Virus record (IMG/VR): IMGVR_UViG_3300005259_000021
Location: 1 to 30,482 of that record
From: a virus
Taxonomy: Duplodnaviria > Caudoviricetes
DNA length: 30,482 nucleotides
Strand: one strand, 5' to 3'
The notes under the pieces: generated by a model
Told to the model about the DNA's origin: nothing
Seen by the model: the letters and a program-made list of their open reading frames with translations, nothing else
Databases searched by the model: none
Shown here: positions 3,220 to 16,126 of the stretch, in pieces
Position numbering within the stretch: the first letter of the stretch is position 1
How the letters are laid out: each line of letters starts with the position of its first letter
Position numbers and translations under genes: made by a program

Positions 3220-3253
3220 AAACCCCCCGGAATGTGGGGGGTCCGGGGGGTTT
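3220..3253. repeat. Perfect 12-bp stem hairpin
   Basis: aaaccccccgga-N10-tccggggggttt. Confidence 0.8.
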
Positions 3254-3254
3254 G

Positions 3255-3630
3255 CGTTAATTCCCACAGCGACGAGCACGGACCCCCACGGGTTGGGGTC
3301 CGCGCGCAGGAGCGTGCCTACTCGCATGCCCGGATCAACCGAAGAGAGGAAGCCGTACAGGAAAGCTCATGCCCCCTGATTACTGACAGAGGCCCTGTGC
3401 CCCCTGGACTCTCGACCGAAAAGCTCCCGCCCCGGAATTTCCGCCGCATGAAAGGTCCCCCGTGTATGGGGTTAGAGGAAGCCCGCACGGCGCTTGAGTG
3501 CGCCCCCACCCCTTCCGCGCGTTTTATCGCGCGCGGCACCCCATAAGAAGAAGCTCAAGCAGCAGAATTTTGGGGGAGAGGCCCCAACTGGCCCTGGAGA
3601 GGGCCATCCAGGCCCTCCTCCTAACAGTCC
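3255..3630 (+). repeat. Long structured direct repeat, copy 1
   Basis: Colinear with 4570-4914; shared blocks include aattcccacagcgacgagcacggaccccca, catgccccctgattactgacaga and agaagaagctcaagcagcagaattttgggggagaggcccca. Confidence 0.9.
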
Positions 3631-4476: not shown

Positions 4477-4569
4477 CCTGATTCAAAAGACGACGCAGCT
4501 CTCACGCAAGCGTGAGAAGACCGTATTCTGACGGCAAAGACCCGTCCAAGCTCATTATCCCAGGTTTTA

Positions 4570-4914
4570 CGTCAATTCCCACAGCGACGAGCACGGACCC
4601 CCACTGGTTGGGGTCCACGCGCAGGAGCGTGCCAACTCGCATGCCATGATCAACCTGAAAGGCAGAAAGTACAGGAAATCTCATGCCCCCTGATTACTGA
4701 CAGAAGCCCTGTGCCCCCTGGACTCAAGGCCGAGAACTCCTGCCCCGGATGCATCATCGAGTCCAAGCCTTCCCGGCGTTGAGGGAGCCCCAACCCTCCC
4801 GCGCGTTTTACCGCGCTCGGCACTCCAGAAGAAGAAGCTCAAGCAGCAGAATTTTGGGGGAGAGGCCCCATTCGGCCCTCTCCAGGGCCTGCCAGGATCT
4901 CCTCCAAAAAGTCC
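4570..4914 (+). repeat. Long structured direct repeat, copy 2
   Basis: Colinear with 3255-3630 apart from an internal gap of about 30 bp. Confidence 0.9.
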
Positions 4915-7975: not shown

Positions 7976-9191
7976 GGCCAGTGGTGAATCGTGCCCCACT
8001 GCTACGCTGCAAATCTAGATATACCATAATAGCGTAGAACACTCTTATGCTTAAGGCGTACAAGTACCGGATCTATCCAACCAAGTCCCAAAGTACCATG
8101 ATGGAGAGAACCTTAGACTTGTGCCGCTGGACATACAACCAGACCTTGGCATATCGAAAAGATGCTTGGGAGAAAGAAGGCAAATCCATCTCAAAATATG
8201 AGACAAATGCGCTTCTCCCAATCTGGAAATCTGATAAACCGGAACTTAAAGACGTATATGCTCAGACCCTCCAGAATGTTCAGGAAAGGGTAGATCTGGC
8301 TTTCAAGGCTTTCTTCAGGCGGGTTAAGGCAGGCGAGGAACCCGGATATCCTCGATTTCGGGGAAAAGGTTGGTACGACTCGTTCACCTACCCACAACCT
8401 GAGAAAGGGATTAAGGTTCTTGCCGAAAAATTGCATGTTCCTAAGATCGGAGATATCAAGATCAAGCTGCATAGACAGATCGAAGGCAGGATCAAGCGTC
8501 TGACGATTCGCAGAGCTGCAACCGGGAAATGGTTTGCCTGTTTCTCGGTCGAGATTGAGGATCTGCCAAAACCTCCCTGGAAAGATGGGTCAATCGTCGG
8601 CATAGATGTCGGCTTGGCGAGCTTTGCCACTCTCTCAAATGGCGAGAAGATCCCCAATCCAAGGTTTTTCCGGGATGAGGAAAAGGAACTCGCTAGGGTC
8701 CAAAGGAAGCTCTCAAAAGCTGCTAAAGGTACTCTTGAGAGGAAGGCTGCCTTAAAGGTCGTTGAACGGGTCCATGAGAGGATTGCTAACAAAAGATATG
8801 AATTTGTTCATCAAGTCAGCCGGGGGCTAGTTAATAGATTCGGCTTGATCGCTTTTGAAGATCTGAACATCAAGAACATGCTTCAAAATCATTGCCTTGC
8901 TAAATCCATCTCGGATGTGGCTTGGAATATGCTTGTGACTGTGACATCTTACAAAGCTGAAAATGCTGGTTCGATTGTCGTCCTGGTAGATCCGAGAAAC
9001 ACTTCTAAGATGTGCTCAAGGTGTGGTATTCTGGTCGAAAAAACTTTGGCTGATCGAGTCCATAATTGCTCGGAGTGCGGGCTATCTCTGGATCGAGATT
9101 GGAATGCAGCCATAAACATTCTGAGATTGGGACTTCAATCTCTGCCAATCAACGGCTAGAAGCCCCGCCCTTCAAGGCAGGGAGAAGTCAC
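7976..9191 (+). mobile_element. IS200/IS605-family (IS1341-like) tnpB-only element
   Basis: Right end gaagccccgcccttcaaggcagggagaagTCAC (hairpin plus TCAC); left end inferred after TTTA (7972-7975); no tnpA. Confidence 0.7.
8047..9159 (+). CDS. tnpB: RNA-guided endonuclease TnpB
   Basis: KAYKYRIYP N-terminus, GYPRFR, RuvC residues in GIDVG / FEDL / DRDWNAAINI all intact, Zn ribbon CSRC..CSEC. Confidence 0.95.
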   Translation: MLKAYKYRIYPTKSQSTMMERTLDLCRWTYNQTLAYRKDAWEKEGKSISKYETNALLPIWKSDKPELKDVYAQTLQNVQERVDLAFKAFFRRVKAGEEPGYPRFRGKGWYDSFTYPQPEKGIKVLAEKLHVPKIGDIKIKLHRQIEGRIKRLTIRRAATGKWFACFSVEIEDLPKPPWKDGSIVGIDVGLASFATLSNGEKIPNPRFFRDEEKELARVQRKLSKAAKGTLERKAALKVVERVHERIANKRYEFVHQVSRGLVNRFGLIAFEDLNIKNMLQNHCLAKSISDVAWNMLVTVTSYKAENAGSIVVLVDPRNTSKMCSRCGILVEKTLADRVHNCSECGLSLDRDWNAAINILRLGLQSLPING

Positions 9192-9731: not shown

Positions 9732-10137
9732 ATGACTGATGCCATCTTCTCGATCAAGCACCGCTACGCAGAGCGCATTTACAGCGGCCATAAGTGCGTG
9801 GAGCTGCGGCGGACGGCTCCCAAGACGCCCATAGAGAGAGCCTGGATCTACGAAACTGCGCCGGTAAAAAGGGTTACAGGCTGGTTTTGAGCCCGGCCTG
9901 ATTTATCCGGCGATGGACTGCGAGGCCCTCCTGGAGCAGTTCGGAGAGGAGAAATGCCTGGGGATAAAGGTCGCCGGGACCAAGGATGAGCGGCTCCTGG
10001 CGATGATCGAGGCCCTGGGAGACAGGCCTCTGCACGCAATCAGCATAGAAAGAGCCCAGAGGATAAGCCCGGTGGAGCTTCGCATCCGGCCACCGCAGAG
10101 CTGGATGTACTGCAAGAAGATGGCAACGCTCGGCTAA
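9732..10137 (+). pseudogene. ASCH/PUA-like domain protein with a one-base frameshift
   Basis: MTDAIFSIKHRYAERIYSGHKCVELRR...WIYETAPVKRVTGWF stops at TGGTTTTGA (9882-9890); removing one T continues to ...RPPQSWMY. Confidence 0.85.
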
Positions 10138-10139
10138 GC

Positions 10140-10175
10140 GTTTTCGATGGGTTACGACTTTTCAGTCATGGAGAC
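10140..10175 (-). repeat. CRISPR-like solitary repeat A (most degenerate, distal)
   Basis: Plus strand gttttcgatgggttacgacttttcagtcatggagac. Confidence 0.8.
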
Positions 10176-10196
10176 GTTATCTCTTCTTCTGCCATG

Positions 10197-11075
10197 CTAT
10201 TCGCCTTGACCTTTTTGATTTCGTTTAATGATTTCCCTTAGTTCATCTAGCGAAAGTACCTCGTCTTTCTTTCGGTGGATCATTCTATGACAGTTTGAAC
10301 ATACAACTGCCATTTCGGTTTTAGGATCAACATTAGTCTCTTTTTCGAGCGTGCTAACGGGCTTCAGATGATGAACTTCAATAAAATTTGCCCCTCGTTC
10401 TCCATATCTTTGCTTGAAATCGAAATCACAAGCCATACATTTGAACCCATGAATCCCAATTGTTTTTTTGCGTAGTTTCCTATTGCGTTCATAGAAATTA
10501 ATAAATCTTTGATCTATTTTCCCTTCAATTAACTTTTCTTTTTCTTCTTCTGCTAAAATCGAATCTAAATCTGCATCAATTGTTGATTCTAGAGATGAGT
10601 TGGTATTTTCGGGCACCACAATGAGCTTTTGATTATTGGACTTTTTTTCCTCTTCTATAGTTTTATAAACATTATTTAGCTTTCTTGTTTTATTTGGCTT
10701 ATCCAATTCATTCTTCAAATCAGATATACCCATTTTCATAGAATCGGCTACAGCATTTTGAATTCGTTTACATTCGGGGCAGCTCACATATCGCCGATAG
10801 CTATTGGGGTGAACCTGTCTGTGATGTTCTCGCCAATTAGGCATGTAATTGTTGCAGCAATCATCGAAGACGCATTCACCATATTTCTTGTTCTTGCAGT
10901 AGCTCCTGCCTTCTGGGAGTTTGTTTGATTTTCGCTCATATAATAGACAGGAAGCCCACGGATGATAATCAGGCTGGCCGGGCTTAGACTCTCCAAATTT
11001 GGCGCTCAATTTCTCCCAATCATCCAAATCGTGTTGTGCTGCTGCTAGTTTTCCCTTAAGGATTACTTCATCCAT
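10197..11075 (-). CDS. HNH endonuclease (McrA-like C-terminal domain) with Cys-rich N-terminal domain
   Basis: EGK...YERN..LR...CMACDFDF..RYG...FIEVHHLKPVS...CSNCHRMIH. Confidence 0.9.
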   Translation of the reverse strand: MDEVILKGKLAAAQHDLDDWEKLSAKFGESKPGQPDYHPWASCLLYERKSNKLPEGRSYCKNKKYGECVFDDCCNNYMPNWREHHRQVHPNSYRRYVSCPECKRIQNAVADSMKMGISDLKNELDKPNKTRKLNNVYKTIEEEKKSNNQKLIVVPENTNSSLESTIDADLDSILAEEEKEKLIEGKIDQRFINFYERNRKLRKKTIGIHGFKCMACDFDFKQRYGERGANFIEVHHLKPVSTLEKETNVDPKTEMAVVCSNCHRMIHRKKDEVLSLDELREIIKRNQKGQGE

Positions 11076-11115
11076 TGATTAATTCCCCGTATTCCCTGCC
11101 ATTGGTGCTTTGACT

Positions 11116-11151
11116 GTTTCAATGGAGCCACGACTTTTCAGACATGGAGAC
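11116..11151 (-). repeat. CRISPR-like solitary repeat B
   Basis: Plus strand gtttcaatggagccacgacttttcagacatggagac; 40 nt upstream of the HNH start. Confidence 0.9.
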
Positions 11152-11160
11152 AAGAAAAAA

Positions 11161-11707
11161 TTATGAGCTCATTGGACTAACGATAACGTTTCCCACCAAC
11201 TGCGATATCATTTCTTCCTGCCCTGTTGATGGACAGCTCCAGTAATCTCTCTCCTCGCTCATTTTGCGAGTAGGGAGCAGGTTTATATTCCAAACCTCCC
11301 ACCGAAGCGGATCTCCGGTGGAAACCACTGTAACAAGAGTGCTCTCACTCTTATTGAGAATGATATTACCATAATCCCTTGTTTTCACAAGGGTACCCGC
11401 TGGCCACGACACGAGAAACATGGTGTCATTGGCTGACCACCCGGCATTCAACATCGCCTGGTAGAAAGCGACAGGAGATGTGTTCCCCCTAACTTCAACC
11501 CTGGCAGCCGCGACTGTCCGCTTAAGAAAATCAACAGACGGTGGCGTCATCTCAATGCAGGCTTGAATGGTGCGGGTAGCGTTCTCGCCGAGATTGATGA
11601 CGGTTTTTTGCCACCAACTCTCTTGCATCGAAGCAAGGAGTAGCGTTCACTACGTTACTAATCAACAAACTAATTAACAAGCTGGCTAACAGATACGTTA
11701 CTTTCAT
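11161..11707 (-). pseudogene. Secreted paralog 4, frameshifted just after the signal peptide
   Basis: MKVTYLLASLLISLLISNVVNATPCF (ATG 11707) is out of frame near 11629 with QESWWQK...YQAMLNAGW...RWEVWNIN. Confidence 0.75.
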
Positions 11708-11723
11708 CTCTCTCATACCTCTT

Positions 11724-11841
11724 GTTTTCCATGAAAACTGAATTATCATGTCGGTAGATCTTGTTTCCCATCTGTCACGTATGAGCCCCAGCCCGGGCTT
11801 ATGGGCGTTTCAATGAGGCACGATTTTTCAGCCATTGAGAC
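11724..11841 (-). repeat. CRISPR-like repeat C (11807-11841) plus conserved leader
   Basis: gtttcaatgaggcacgatttttcagccattgagac; leader colinear with 12468-12553 and 15901-15984. Confidence 0.9.
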
Positions 11842-11876
11842 ATTTCTTTTCATACTTTCCTTAATAAAAGAAAAAA

Positions 11877-12446
11877 TTATGAATCAAAATATTCGGTCGC
11901 GTTAAACACGTCTACCGAGTATAAAGTGACTATCGCATTAGGGTCAGCCACTATTTTGTCGGTATCAGGGTCATAGTAGGCGTTGAATTCAAGGGGCATA
12001 TAAGCGTAAATACTATTTGGTGGGTTTGCATTATTAGCTTCCCATTTTCCATAAGTGTTTAAAGACGCTGTATAAACTGCTTCACCTTCCTGAACTGTAC
12101 CGCCGTTTAGCGGTTGAGTACCGTACTTACCGATTTTCATCGGTACTTTCTGCCAGCCATTTCTCCAAAGACTTGCTGCAAAATCCTTCGCAGAGTAATT
12201 GCGTTTTTCTGTAGCACTAAGCTTGATATACTCAGCATATGCAGATACTTGCGCCTTCGATAGATTCCCGAAACTATCAGGAATAACGAGTTCGCAATCT
12301 TCCGGTGCTTTTAGTGCGGGCGCCGCCTGAATAGTTAAGCCGTTTTTATAAGACATATCTATCAACCAGTCGTAACCGCAAGGAGCGGCAGCACTTAAAA
12401 AAATACTCAATAACATTACTATACCTACTGCTGCTACTAATCTCAT
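11877..12446 (-). CDS. Secreted paralog 3 (189 aa)
   Basis: GGAGGT RBS; signal peptide MRLVAAVGIVMLLSIFLSAAA; LNTYGKWEANNAN. Confidence 0.85.
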   Translation of the reverse strand: MRLVAAVGIVMLLSIFLSAAAPCGYDWLIDMSYKNGLTIQAAPALKAPEDCELVIPDSFGNLSKAQVSAYAEYIKLSATEKRNYSAKDFAASLWRNGWQKVPMKIGKYGTQPLNGGTVQEGEAVYTASLNTYGKWEANNANPPNSIYAYMPLEFNAYYDPDTDKIVADPNAIVTLYSVDVFNATEYFDS

Positions 12447-12467
12447 TTTCGAAACCTCCTGCTTGTC

Positions 12468-12590
12468 CAGTTTCCCATGGAAACTGAATTCATAATGTCG
12501 ATAGATCTTGTTTTCCATCTGTCCCATGTGAGCCCCTACCTGAACGCATGGGCGTTTCAAAGGGACCACGAATTTTCAGGTCATGGAGAC
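12468..12590 (-). repeat. CRISPR-like repeat D (12554-12590) plus conserved leader
   Basis: gtttcaaagggaccacgaattttcaggtcatggagac; the repeat supplies the last codons and stop of gene 12576-13064. Confidence 0.9.
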
Positions 12591-13064
12591 ATTAAACCGC
12601 TCCACCTTAAACGCTCTAACAGTATCAACGACGGTCGTTTTCCCAGTTATGGGACTAAACCACGCATCCAAATCTGCGGCATTTTTACCATATAGATTTG
12701 CGTTGTTCACTTCCCAATTTCCGTACTGGTTTATGGTTATCGTGATAAGGGTAGACCCTGTGCTGCCATCATCCCTGGTGTACCAGAGAAACCGCATTTC
12801 TTCTCGCCAATTTTTCTTATTTTTTAATTGTGTGGCGAGTTCTTCGTATGTAGTACAGTTTCCTCGCAGTTCCTCAACGTAGCTGATGAACTGCGACGAA
12901 GTGTTTTGGGGCGAAAGCATACATCTCGACTCCTCCGCTTGGGTGTTATGAAACCCCGTATACACCTTCTCTAATAACCACCCTCTGTCGCATTGTTGGG
13001 CGGTTGCGTTCGCAACTACTATCCCTGACAAAATAAATATAAGAGCTATTTTGCTCAATTTCAA
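12576..13064 (-). CDS. Secreted paralog 2 (162 aa)
   Basis: AAGGAGG RBS plus TTG; signal peptide ...IVVANATA; INQYGNWEVNNAN. Confidence 0.85.
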   Translation of the reverse strand: MKLSKIALIFILSGIVVANATAQQCDRGWLLEKVYTGFHNTQAEESRCMLSPQNTSSQFISYVEELRGNCTTYEELATQLKNKKNWREEMRFLWYTRDDGSTGSTLITITINQYGNWEVNNANLYGKNAADLDAWFSPITGKTTVVDTVRAFKVERFNVSMT

Positions 13065-13161
13065 TTACATTCCTCCTTAACGCGATCTTTCGCATCAACT
13101 AGCTATCGGCTCTCCAAATCCCACCAGCGACCGATGGGAATCACCAGAGACCCGCCGTATT

Positions 13162-13256
13162 AAATAAGGCTCGATGATCCGGGAGCAGGCCCCGGCTGCA
13201 ATCCATGCCTCCATAGATCGCTAGCGTGCTGTTGGGCGCTGAGCAGGCCATGAAGC
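13162..13256. repeat. 95-bp intergenic repeat, copy of 16032-16126
   Basis: Five mismatches in 95 bp by manual alignment. Confidence 0.92.
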
Positions 13257-13282
13257 TTTAGTCACACGGTTAAAAAAGAAAG

Positions 13283-13795
13283 TTAAGCGGCACAATCCCA
13301 CTTCCGAGATATTACCGACATATTCGTTTTTATACCGGCCACAGGATCATTTGGGATGTTGAAATGGATTCCATCAGAACCCTTCCACACTACGTTGACT
13401 ATGACCTCGCGCCCATCAATAATGGTACTAGTCACAAAAGAGTCGCCCTTTCCAATCATGTACTCCTTTATTACACCATTTTTTGTTACGGTGAATTTTA
13501 CACTATCGAAATACGCACAACAAGAAGGATTTTTCAGCCCTGCGTCTCTGAAAGCTTTTTCGATCTCTGTTGCATTTGGTGCTCCATCATGTCCATAATA
13601 CAACTTAGACCAGGCTTCAGCCCCTATCTTACCGATTTCGTCCAAATTTTGGGTCGTGCTGTCGTTTACGCAGGGATTATTGATATCTTCCCCACCACGA
13701 TAAGTTTCCGTAACGAGCTCTACAAACTGGCTTCCACTTACTGCACTAATACTTATTATTGCACTTATTATCAAAACTAAAAACGACTTTTTCAT
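13283..13795 (-). CDS. Secreted protein (170 aa), likely distant paralog 1
   Basis: GGAGG RBS; signal peptide MKKSFLVLIISAIISISAVSG; EKAFRDAGL. Confidence 0.8.
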   Translation of the reverse strand: MKKSFLVLIISAIISISAVSGSQFVELVTETYRGGEDINNPCVNDSTTQNLDEIGKIGAEAWSKLYYGHDGAPNATEIEKAFRDAGLKNPSCCAYFDSVKFTVTKNGVIKEYMIGKGDSFVTSTIIDGREVIVNVVWKGSDGIHFNIPNDPVAGIKTNMSVISRKWDCAA

Positions 13796-13814
13796 TAATC
13801 TTCCTCCACAGGGC

Positions 13815-13850
13815 GTTTCAATTGGGCCACGACTTTTCAGCCATTGATAC
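13815..13850 (-). repeat. CRISPR-like solitary repeat E
   Basis: gtttcaattgggccacgacttttcagccattgatac; 19 nt upstream of ATG 13795. Confidence 0.9.
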
Positions 13851-13902
13851 AGAGTAATGAAAGGACGCTTCATCCCAGGGATCTCTTTTCTTTATTAGAT
13901 AG

Positions 13903-14847
13903 TCACGAAGAAGGCAAATCAGCAACGAGACAACAACGGCATCCCATTTTACAGGTACATTCTTCATAAGGCAGTTCAGGCACTTTATTTATTGAATAAG
14001 TATTATTCTTTAATTCCCTGCAATGCTCACATGCATTATCGGCAACGATAATCCTCGCTTTTTTGAATCCGCATTTTTTTAATTCATGCAAATTTTTTAA
14101 ATAACTTGGATGGAAAATTAACATTCTTGCGGCGGACTCAGCGCCAAGACTGGAGTCGATATGAAAATCTGGTGGTAGCCAGTTTTTTACATTCCTGCAA
14201 GAAAGGAGATACATCATCGCCGCAACGACTCGCAATGCATTAAGTTGGTGATCTTTGATATTTTTTAAAATTTTAGGCTTACTGGCAAAAATTTCTTTAA
14301 TAAAAGTCGAGTCATAATCAATCCCTGTAGAGAATACAGCCTGCTGATGATAAGAATTTGCAATTTGACATGCTTTATCTAATTCTAAATTCTGAAGAGC
14401 TTGGAATACCTGCTGTTCCACTGCCGATTTTTTCTCTTTCTCCTCGTCTAAATAGCTCGCAGAGACAGCCTCGCCTTTTTCTGAGCACTCAAATATCTCG
14501 AGTCCCCTTACCAACACCTCAACGCCTGTTGCATCCGCTTCGATCAGCCTTTCGATTAGGATGTCCTTCTTACCAGTGACTTTCAATCCTCGAGCCTTCA
14601 GCAGATCTTTTAATTCTGGCAGTTTGAATTTATGATCTAGCTTCCCATTAATTCCTGCGGGTTCTATAAATCCATTGTCGATGAACCAGTCGAGAGCTTT
14701 CTTGGGCGGTTCTTTGAGTACCGTCTCCCAACCATCATCTTTCATGAAATCCTTGAGAGCATGTGGGTGAAGGAATCTACTCAAGAAGAAAAGGTGTGCT
14801 GGATCTTTTTCTCGATTGAAGCCCATGATTCTTTTCAAAAATTCCAT
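13903..14847 (-). CDS. SAP-domain protein with C-terminal Cys cluster
   Basis: FKLPELKDLLKARGLKVTGKKDILIERL is a SAP motif; CEHC...CTCKMGCRC. Confidence 0.8.
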   Translation of the reverse strand: MEFLKRIMGFNREKDPAHLFFLSRFLHPHALKDFMKDDGWETVLKEPPKKALDWFIDNGFIEPAGINGKLDHKFKLPELKDLLKARGLKVTGKKDILIERLIEADATGVEVLVRGLEIFECSEKGEAVSASYLDEEKEKKSAVEQQVFQALQNLELDKACQIANSYHQQAVFSTGIDYDSTFIKEIFASKPKILKNIKDHQLNALRVVAAMMYLLSCRNVKNWLPPDFHIDSSLGAESAARMLIFHPSYLKNLHELKKCGFKKARIIVADNACEHCRELKNNTYSINKVPELPYEECTCKMGCRCCLVADLPSS

Positions 14848-15076
14848 TTATCTCGCCCTCATGATTGTGATAAATAGCAGAGGAGAAAAAGATTTTGGCT
14901 GGCGTACCTTATGACTTTCTAAAAGTTCGCTAGAGGGGTCTCAGGAGGGTTTACTTTTTCACTTTCGTGCGCCTTAAACTCCATGCTCATCCAGAATCCT
15001 CTTCGTTACCTCTGCGAAGGATTCCCCAACGACTTCACTCATAATTGCCTGGAATAGTGATATCTCATACAACTGG

Positions 15077-15367
15077 CTAACCCCTGCTTGAATGTTCTAG
15101 CCTATCAAATATAGCCCTCGCTTCTTCCTCAGCGCGGGATCTCTTCAGCTCTAAATCCTTTTCTGTGAGGAACTGGTCCATTTCAACCCAGCCAGTCTGA
15201 TCTTGGTGGATCAAATATAGGAAATCCAAGAACATCTGCTCGTTAAGCTCATGCTTGCCATGCATGCTATCTTCAACGATAGCATATGTGCCCAATCGTT
15301 TTTTATCTGGAAGCTTATATCTCTCAAAGATTTCAGCACTAAACGATAATCTCCTTCTTTTTACCAT
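15077..15367 (-). CDS. Hypothetical protein (96 aa)
   Basis: Protein-like composition and co-oriented with neighbours; no motif. Confidence 0.55.
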   Translation of the reverse strand: MVKRRRLSFSAEIFERYKLPDKKRLGTYAIVEDSMHGKHELNEQMFLDFLYLIHQDQTGWVEMDQFLTEKDLELKRSRAEEEARAIFDRLEHSSRG

Positions 15368-15531
15368 GAGAGTGATTTAATGCATCCCACCAACTGTTAA
15401 AGGTATTGCCGAGCCACCGTTCCTGGGCCGGCGTGCCAGATCCGAGAGGCAGCCTCGCCTTATTAGACTTGGACACCATGTAGATTAATGATGAGCACGT
15501 AGAACATAGAGGGAAAAGGAGGACGAAGATG

Positions 15532-15825
15532 TTAAGCCTTCCCAATTGCCTTCTTATACCGATTCATTGCCTTTCTTGCCGTCAAAGGCTCCTCGCTGTG
15601 AACAGTAAATGGGTTGCCGATTAAATAATAGCCTGCAGAATATTTTCCTCCACAGTGTGCCCCTCGATGCCCCCATTCGTTCGGCCCTTCGCTGCCTTCA
15701 GGCTTACCACCTGATCCATGCAGATGGATCTCGCCGCAATACGGACAAATAACGAATACATGCACTTTATTAGCCGCTATCACCGTTGCCGGTCTTTCAT
15801 TATCTAATTCGATTATATCGCTCAT
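15532..15825 (-). CDS. Small Zn-binding viral protein (97 aa)
   Basis: CPYCGEIHLHG...GHRGAHC; start taken at MSDIIEL because the upstream extension runs through the repeat leader. Confidence 0.7.
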   Translation of the reverse strand: MSDIIELDNERPATVIAANKVHVFVICPYCGEIHLHGSGGKPEGSEGPNEWGHRGAHCGGKYSAGYYLIGNPFTVHSEEPLTARKAMNRYKKAIGKA

Positions 15826-15900
15826 CTCTTCTTGCTCCGTGATAAAATCTATTTGATTATCAAATGAAAAACCTTTTGTCCGTAGAATCTTGAGCAGGTG

Positions 15901-16019
15901 AGTTTCCCATGGGAAACTGAATTTTGAAGTCGATAGATCTTGTTTACATTCTGTCTCGTGTGAGCCCTGCCTGGGCACATGGGCGTTTCAATGGGCCACG
16001 ACTTTTCAGCCATGGGTAA
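15901..16019 (-). repeat. CRISPR-like repeat F (15985-16019) plus conserved leader with a perfect 18-bp palindrome
   Basis: gtttcaatgggccacgacttttcagccatgggtaa; agtttcccatgggaaact at 15901-15918. Confidence 0.9.
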
Positions 16020-16031
16020 TTGGCAGCCGAG

Positions 16032-16126
16032 AAATAGGGCTCGATGATCCGGGAGCTGGCCCCGGCTGCGATCCATGCCTCCAAAGATCGCAAGCGTGCT
16101 GTTGGGCGCTGAGCAGGCCATGAAGC
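16032..16126. repeat. 95-bp intergenic repeat, immediately upstream (minus strand) of repeat F
   Basis: Matches 13162-13256. Confidence 0.92.

Follow-up and report, generated by a model that had tools for sequence, protein, structure and literature searches.

A miniature of an archaeal IS110 element behind CRISPR repeats of a virus, a likely entry point for gene cassettes

Integrons carry arrays of co-oriented gene cassettes; a repeated site closes each cassette, and all are stacked behind a single entry point. Short non-autonomous elements are known from the IS110 family, as exemplified by MITEPpu9 (ssr9), a derivative of ISPpu9 in Pseudomonas putida (PMC12288879), and mini-IS cargo of IS1111 elements has been mobilised in trans in the laboratory (PMC11187229), which we count as a likeness to the case presented here. 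Our literature search found no report of an IS110 element that targets CRISPR repeats. We analysed a 30,482-nt stretch of viral DNA, hereafter the window, in which conserved sequence follows solitary CRISPR repeats. We consider it quite probable, taking the explanation as a whole, that this sequence is a miniature IS110 of Methanothrix-family archaea which sits at repeat ends and similar sites, is likely moved in trans, and likely provides the entry point for gene cassettes.

The viral locus and its conserved stretch

The features of the locus are listed from the resident repeat onwards.

15985..16019, minus strand: CRISPR repeat F, resident repeat of the viral locus and target of element copy F; its upstream flank is that of the single repeat of virus L186
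15904..15986, minus strand: mini-IS110 copy F, 83 bp; starts at the first base past the AA core of repeat F and runs to the AA core of its own right end; 51 nt align to the left end of the IS110 and 14 nt to its right end
13851..15901, minus strand: cassette 1 cargo, two small ORFs without named family and a 314-aa SAP-domain ORF (13903-14847)
13815..13850, minus strand: CRISPR repeat E, closes cassette 1; only GCCC follows, the first bases of the element's left end
12591..13814, minus strand: cassette 2 cargo, two ORFs with hydrophobic N-termini and no family match, and a second copy of a 95-nt stretch present upstream of repeat F
12554..12590, minus strand: CRISPR repeat D, degenerate and 37 nt long, closing cassette 2 and serving as target of copy D
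12472..12555, minus strand: mini-IS110 copy D, 84 bp
11842..12469, minus strand: cassette 3 cargo, an ORF of ~189 aa without named family
11807..11841, minus strand: CRISPR repeat C, closes cassette 3; target of copy C
11726..11808, minus strand: mini-IS110 copy C, 83 bp; left-donor motif with one substitution
11152..11723, minus strand: cassette 4 cargo, an ORF without named family; hydrophobic start in another frame, probably frameshifted
11116..11151, minus strand: CRISPR repeat B, closes cassette 4, without element; differs at one position from the array repeat of virus locus L011
10176..11115, minus strand: cassette 5 cargo, a 292-aa HNH endonuclease; weak match to type IV restriction
10140..10175, minus strand: CRISPR repeat A, degenerate, without element, closes cassette 5; its downstream junction joins the flank found after the element in related records L186, L045 and L010

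HNH and SAP were the only families named by searches with the cargo ORFs. A sequence-only reading of this DNA had described a conserved, structured leader behind three repeats, and all of its motifs were recovered on the minus strand. The stretch follows repeats C, D and F at 11724-11806, 12470-12553 and 15902-15984, respectively (the start given earlier for D, 12468, includes two extra flank bases), and the rest of it is absent behind the GCCC of repeat E, as had been noted. The proposed homology among the three copies is borne out by pairwise identities of 80-83% (67-70 of 84 positions), far above chance. Given that each copy shares 89-93% identity with copies in other records, and is therefore closer to these than to its window siblings, the three were not copied locally from one another. 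The suggestion of a recombination site travelling with the cassettes thus came close in that the stretch is a pair of IS110 ends, but not in the local copying that it implied.

"Structured" is weak: folding z-scores of the window copies range from +0.04 to -2.0, and the terminal palindrome lacks covariation, 369 of 500 shuffles having paired equally well. Some covariation is seen in two stems (12 cells; 0 of 500 shuffles). This palindrome is perfect over 18 bp in copy F (15901-15918), as reported, and imperfect in copies C and D; we rejected it as a selected hairpin because covariation is absent. The resemblance of its first half to the repeat's 5' end is better read as the IS110 right end plus target bases, which stays unchanged beside unrelated repeats (L021, L044). 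"Leader" is a misnomer, since true arrays of the same repeat carry cas4/1-cas2 and their leader on the opposite side. A conserved peptide was rejected, as the frames are broken in several copies, and an Rfam scan of the window gave no relevant match.

The parent element, its insertion sites and predicted guides

Its ends show the stretch to derive from a bridge-recombinase (IS110) element of Methanothrix-family archaea; it is non-autonomous and not a pseudo-spacer. The mini element is 83-87 bp long, without coding capacity or conserved short frames. Over the first ~46 and the final ~14 bases it matches the two ends of a 1.6-kb IS110. Matches to the left end only, in genome G001, are followed by an ORF with PF01548 and PF02371, marking a full IS110, and the D, E, D-D and S residues of the IS110 ORF align to IS621; both ends are common to the miniature and a full element encoding DEDD and Tnp domains. 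That these are IS ends explains why the stretch is conserved. No source was found in any full IS for the ~25-nt middle, and the window encodes no IS110 gene. Earlier candidates, a duplicated-target transposon and an IS200/IS605-type element, were dropped after the IS110 partner appeared. The shared ends and the shared target class suggest that the recombinase of the IS110, under a predicted bridge RNA, likely acts in trans to move the mini element. The latter is presumably still mobile; a right-end/left-end circle junction was not seen in the loci examined, and assemblies rarely retain circles.

Model matches occur in 41 of 105 genomes of the family, IS left ends counted in. Insertion falls on the AA of (G)ATTGAA-AC, both where CRISPR repeats end and at similar sites; this consensus is inflated by a search model that started with TGAAAC and a parser that required AA. 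Empty and filled sites differ exactly at the common AA core: L210/L031 in both directions at a non-CRISPR site, L028/L010, L014/L028, and the comparisons of L045, L186 and L010 with window repeat A. Dispersed copies thus have precise empty sites sharing the 2-nt core. For the in-gene copy in L219, the sole homolog found in an empty-site search covers residues 3-148 of 335. Full IS copies lie inside CRISPR arrays in 12 of 21 cases, and in three genomes a single repeat family makes up 16 of 39, 22 of 42 and 64 of 85 perfect GATTGAAAC sites. Since 48 of 81 copies of the main class lie away from repeats, targeting follows sequence and not CRISPR function. Beyond the family, a 14-nt junction pattern matched 10 of 401 genomes of the phylum, and eight of the ten loci, when read, were unrelated sequence; the first sequence pattern searched in the metagenome gave no match. 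Chance matches were left out (L004, L005, L006 and L008, 4 of 8; L027, 1 of 16).

The left non-coding end of the IS110 is predicted to hold a bridge-like RNA, which would be made and would guide insertion. Its target guide reads GATTGAA-AC, which is the 3' end of several repeat families. The left target guide and the insertion site covary, with 4.05 of 5 non-core positions matching versus 1.36 when permuted (13 guide groups; p 5e-5). The left donor guide matches the right end at 7 of 7 positions in 31 of 34 copies. For the right target guide against core and right flank, a register-free comparison gave 4.3 versus 2.8 (p 6e-4) and a fixed register p 0.08. The guide statistics exclude L060 (mis-anchored), five rows without an anchor and ten ATTGAA-group copies missed by the parser. 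A canonical right-donor guide, complementary to core and left end, was not found; the expected strand matches an internal left-end 9-mer in the same sense, which makes the donor-mimic step uncertain.

The sequence-only reading had proposed, as one option, a pseudo-spacer acting as crRNA mimic or regulatory guide. In this scenario, repeat and element would give rise to a crRNA-like RNA (Racr or crlRNA type), acting in Cas complexes as decoy or regulator, for which the virus would keep the units. The six solitary, repeat-derived units in the virus fit the solitary-repeat layout as far as it is described in PMC10651486, the element stays behind the repeat in four related viral or host loci, and a discrete RNA might arise as a by-product of repeat cleavage. 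However, 58 of the 91 distinct full mini copies have no repeat in front (33 follow CRISPR-like repeats), so that the spacer-like part is not tied to the repeat; empty sites and a bare-repeat allele exist, folding is weak, and IS ends account for the conservation. The first 37 nt matched the rest of the window at 21-23 of 37 positions, which is shuffle level (mean 21). We consider this explanation improbable.

That the stretch is a structured RNA or terminator dedicated to the trailer end of CRISPR arrays is more improbable still. This reading could draw on the covariation in the two stems and on array-terminal position, as 18 of 19 copies in arrays lack an intact repeat over the next 400 nt. 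Yet the longer stem is the inverted repeat of the IS, the arms of which lie 1.5 kb apart in the full element, copies also occur in genes and operons (L208, L219, L018), and spacers and terminal repeats can come after the element: in arrays L016, L021, L022 and L024 a normal spacer and a degenerate last repeat follow it. The same sites exist in arrays without the element, and these empty sites already largely refute the trailer reading.

Cassettes behind the element

The window allele equals the repeat-plus-element allele of a related virus with 5.76 kb of repeat-terminated cassettes added behind the element. Relatives vary at this one entry point, with no cassette in L186, one in L010 and five in the window, and a contig of run X2 joins repeat F directly to the flank at 10137, representing a bare-repeat allele. 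In host genome G080, a 2,140-bp composite headed by the mini element occupies two sites, 98.7% identical and bounded by two cores. Another cassette (~810 bp in L028 and L195, shorter in L044) begins at the core behind elements in three array types, and is also present behind a bare repeat in a virus. Junction-type fusions were seen in L079, L095 and L052, those in L079 and L095 at core-like sequences with few shared bases.

We propose that the IS110 recombinase and its predicted bridge RNA would insert the mini element in trans at the AA of (G)ATTGAA-AC. Given that element and target both continue with AC after the core, insertion would preserve the repeat on the left side and create a donor-like end on the other. 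This right end could then recombine with another repeat end, thereby deleting or inserting DNA blocks that end in a repeat, and the mini element would likely be the entry point for the repeat-terminated cassettes of the virus. We see about an even chance that the recombinase placed the viral cassettes in an integron-like manner, with homologous recombination as the possible alternative.

In that alternative, the mini IS110 would be a passive hitchhiker, the repeats having arrived with host DNA and the cassettes having been exchanged by homologous recombination over the 36-bp repeat or over repeat plus element (120 bp). The empty/filled pairs prove insertion of the element and not of cassettes, the L044 cassette is joined to half an element at an irregular point, and the 95-nt duplicate within cassette 2 points to recombination between alleles; in addition, cargo homologs exist without such flanks, as five host loci with homologs of the HNH and SAP genes showed no flanking repeats or elements. 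Passive exchange is harder to reconcile with the G080 composite, which is bounded exactly by both cores at unrelated sites, with the single cassette behind three array types, and with the L079 and L095 fusions. We regard it as a serious contender, its probability falling a little short of even. More tentatively, and with somewhat less confidence, the recombinase-based reading might be extended to a natural RNA-guided integron, in which a bridge recombinase of archaea, programmed for the conserved 3' end of CRISPR repeats, would treat these repeats as cassette sites and keep the right end of the mini element as its lasting site of entry, trimming arrays back to the element and stacking or swapping cassettes between host CRISPR loci and viruses.

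These findings would name a natural target for an archaeal bridge recombinase, namely the 8-9 conserved terminal bases of CRISPR repeats from several families. The element would be a parasite of CRISPR arrays that does not disrupt the repeat. It may also delete immune memory, with 18 of 19 mini copies in arrays standing last as against 3 of 12 full copies, and may transfer genes between CRISPR loci and viruses. A further caution is that IS110 ends, rather than guides, can make up conserved "pseudo-spacers" found after solitary repeats of viruses. For testing, the system provides a donor of compact size, sister guides directed at other targets and a guide order that is unusual.

Comparison with known systems

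Within the parts of the cited accounts on which we draw, MITEPpu9 is the closest known element. Both are short, non-autonomous and possess both IS110 ends (boxes of 43 bp and 16 bp there, ~46 and ~14 here), and both share a common dinucleotide core, a repeated-sequence target and modular end combinations. In contrast to MITEPpu9, the element described here is archaeal, targets the CRISPR repeat end instead of REP with core AA instead of AG, has no known sRNA gene, and is found in viruses between gene cassettes (PMC12288879). The IS621 bridge RNA system likewise combines a DEDD and Tnp recombinase with a 2-nt core, a non-coding region that lies upstream of the gene, and target and donor loops whose left guides are same-sense. 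Here, however, the right (top-strand) target guide comes before the left one, a canonical guide for the right donor was not found, an inverted repeat of 15 bp lies ~36 nt inside the left end, and the recombinase is only a distant protein match (E 5e-6) (PMC11208160, PMC13626964). As in IS1111-attC and REP-targeting IS1111 elements, the target is a repeated site of another genetic system, the top-strand match precedes the bottom-strand match, and the inverted repeats are sub-terminal; the non-coding region lies upstream here and downstream there, and the target here is the CRISPR repeat 3' end (PMC11187229).

Stand-alone CRISPR repeats in a virus are shared with Racr solitary repeat units, crlRNAs and viral mini-arrays as these are described in part of the respective accounts (PMC10651486, 10.1101/2023.03.03.530964, PMC6858448), whereas a mobile element or gene cassette, and not a guide-length spacer, follows the repeat here.

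Among the 27 window ORFs scanned, none matched the tyrosine integrase family to which IntI belongs, and CRISPR repeats, without an Rfam match, take the place of attC. As in integrons, the viral cassettes are co-oriented, repeat-closed and arranged behind one entry point; unlike in integrons, the sites are CRISPR repeats and the candidate enzyme is an RNA-guided recombinase that would act in trans.

A miniature IS110 element behind the viral repeats

The 30.5-kb record carries terminase, portal and capsid genes, along with the following features relevant to this analysis:

975-1835: ArdC-type anti-restriction gene, near the left end
3248-3630 and 4563-4914: duplicated blocks on either side of a DUF4258/MqsA-like gene pair
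8047-9159: TnpB (IS605-type) gene, close to the cassette region
9732-10137: ASCH-like ORF, apparently frameshifted
10140-16019, minus strand: six CRISPR-like repeats (A-F), spaced 0.7-2.2 kb apart, with genes in between
13162-13256 and 16032-16126: a 95-nt stretch, 95% identical between its two copies, inside cassette 2 and upstream of repeat F; also found upstream of the repeat in related viruses

In Methanothrix-family records, the repeat, which we take to be of the kind labelled type I-G, also builds true arrays that follow Cas4/Cas1 fusions and Cas2; these records point to this family as the probable host of the virus. One viral contig (L011:1-304) holds a true array with a leader, its repeat being the same as repeat B.

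The sequence-only reading had described a structured leader of about 85 nt, possibly a pseudo-spacer or recombination site. The conserved stretch is a real feature: it follows repeats C, D and F, GCCC follows repeat E, and the 18-bp palindrome is present in copy F. The three copies share 80-83% identity among themselves and 89-93% with copies in other records. The copies fold weakly; the long hairpin displays modest covariation and the terminal palindrome none, and Rfam returned no match for the stretch. Its identification as a miniature, non-autonomous IS110 element of 83-84 bp is well supported. In one genome (G001), matches to the left end alone lead on to an ORF in which the two IS110 domains are both present, and two of them break up the same CRISPR array, both times where a repeat ends. 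In this ORF the catalytic residues D, E, D-D and S line up with those of IS621, and the viral copies match the full element over 51 nt at the left end and 14-29 nt at the right end. The hairpin is the inverted repeat of the IS, its arms lying 1.5 kb apart in the full element, which accounts for the modest covariation, while the palindrome consists of the IS right end plus target bases. Relatives of this IS110 occur in 43 of 105 family genomes; no IS110 gene was found in the virus itself. At another locus (L052), two arrays that differ in repeat family are linked by a full IS110.

Insertion sites and the predicted bridge RNA

A 21-base gapped pattern retrieved 16 loci from genome contigs, 15 of them true copies whose record titles name Methanothrix, Methanosaeta, Methanotrichaceae or Methanosarcinales; the remaining locus was a chance match. 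The true copies sit behind the final intact repeat in arrays belonging to various repeat families, behind solitary repeats, or without any repeat. At four loci the element is followed by a normal spacer and a degenerate last repeat, and the element is thus an insertion into the repeat-spacer junction. In a sequence-model search, which also counted IS left ends, 41 of the 105 family genomes gave a match. At least 91 distinct full copies with clean ends were collected, using only the higher-scoring of roughly 150 listed matches plus other scans. Of these 91, 19 lie behind an array repeat, 48 at a non-repeat site, and 14 behind a lone repeat-like sequence (three being those of the virus; one, L013, is actually in an array and two, L136 and L206, are doubtful cases). 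As the model started with TGAAAC and the parser demanded AA, part of the target consensus was imposed by the method. The other 10 form a separate class with target CCCTAA-AG.

Sister IS110 and miniature elements with guide CCCTAA were found at seven loci (L002, L019, L023, L031, L033, L057, L086). The insertion point of this class is the loop of a G+C-rich hairpin, presumably akin to IS200/IS605 ends; in one case the right flank agrees with the end of the viral TnpB element. A third miniature class (L161:1233-1324; target CTGAA, different right end) lies inside a repeat, not at its end. Elsewhere, an 84-bp copy lies in frame within an open reading frame (L219:582-671, L208), and a family A DNA polymerase gene recurs beside element-bearing CRISPR loci (L013, L016, L025 and L028, Pfam-checked in L028).

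The region upstream of the IS110 gene is structured (z about -2), and one loop bears GATTGAA-AC. In a set of 40 parsed copies representing 13 guide groups, the predicted left target guide agreed with 4.05 of the 5 bases that precede the core, compared with 1.36 after permutation (p 5e-5), and the donor guide matched the IS right end at 7/7 positions in 31 of 34 copies. The right target guide, located 5' of the left one, gave p 0.08 in a fixed register and 6e-4 register-free. No canonical right-donor guide was found; the would-be right-donor strand shows a same-sense match to a 9-mer that lies about 25 nt into the left end (8.0/9 versus 6.2 permuted; 7 groups) and is retained by the miniature element. 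In three genomes, a single repeat family accounts for 16/39, 22/42 and 64/85 of the perfect GATTGAAAC sites, and of the 21 full copies in the GATTGAA-AC guide group, 12 lie in CRISPR arrays. Perfect targets of the guide are thus found mainly in CRISPR repeats, for which it may have been selected. The IS has its own target within its guide, and the guide takes part in fusions at two loci: at L079 (G077:C12:107500-117000) a right end has fused with the next copy's guide, and at L095 the fusion partner is a donor-like site.

Empty sites and the possible assembly of viral cassettes

Empty and filled alleles differ precisely at the core.

Empty and filled sites compared
L210/L031: pair in both directions, at sites not linked to CRISPR
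L028/L010 and L014/L028: empty/filled pairs
L045, L186 and L010: compared with repeat A of the virus

A single contig of sequencing run X2 joins repeat F directly to the flank at 10137, with 33 bases on the short side. In genome G080, a 2,140-bp composite (miniature element, peptidase-domain gene, and transposase tail with its right end) occupies two unrelated sites at 98.7% identity, its limits being the two cores.

The viral record amounts to the L186 allele with an additional 5,762 bp, from the right end of copy F to the end of repeat A; likewise, L028 amounts to L014 with an extra 3.7 kb closing with a degenerate repeat. One shared cassette measures about 810 bp in both L028 and L195 and less in L044. 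It begins at the core, following elements in arrays of three types and, in virus L010, following a bare repeat. The flank after repeat A also adjoins repeat-element units or cassettes in host-type contigs (L045, L195).

Given that AC follows the core in both element and target, insertion would keep the repeat intact and yield a donor-like right end. If this end recombined with a repeat farther downstream, the intervening DNA would be lost, and the opposite reaction would stack repeat-terminated blocks. Among miniature copies in arrays, 1 of 19 is followed by an intact repeat within 400 nt (L101, with a half copy at a contig edge, provides a further exception); for full copies the figure is 9 of 12, within 300 nt. 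This position bias fits the deletion and stacking model, as do the fusions in L079, L095 and L052, although age alone could also generate the bias. We consider assembly of the viral cassettes by the recombinase about as likely as not. Against it, the right-donor guide was not found, the loci examined contain no circle junction, cargo homologs at 5 loci have no repeat or element flanks, and the L044 junction is irregular. Precise excision at a low rate would be compatible with PMC13626964, and 10.1101/2025.10.25.684509 likewise allows copy-out or direct transfer of single junctions.

Relation to known IS110 systems

The IS110 clade may already be catalogued. The literature searched (mostly non-subscription papers), including PMC11208160, PMC13343696 and 10.64898/2026.10.21.760802, contained no IS110 aimed at CRISPR repeat ends. 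An integron-like use of the element is a plausible candidate role. According to PMC11187229, REP and attC sites are known targets of IS110/IS1111 elements. The same paper also describes the right-target-guide-first order for IS1111 elements, whose non-coding region lies downstream of the gene, whereas it lies upstream here. MITEPpu9 beside ISPpu9, as described in PMC12288879, shares its anatomy with the miniature element and full IS110 reported here.
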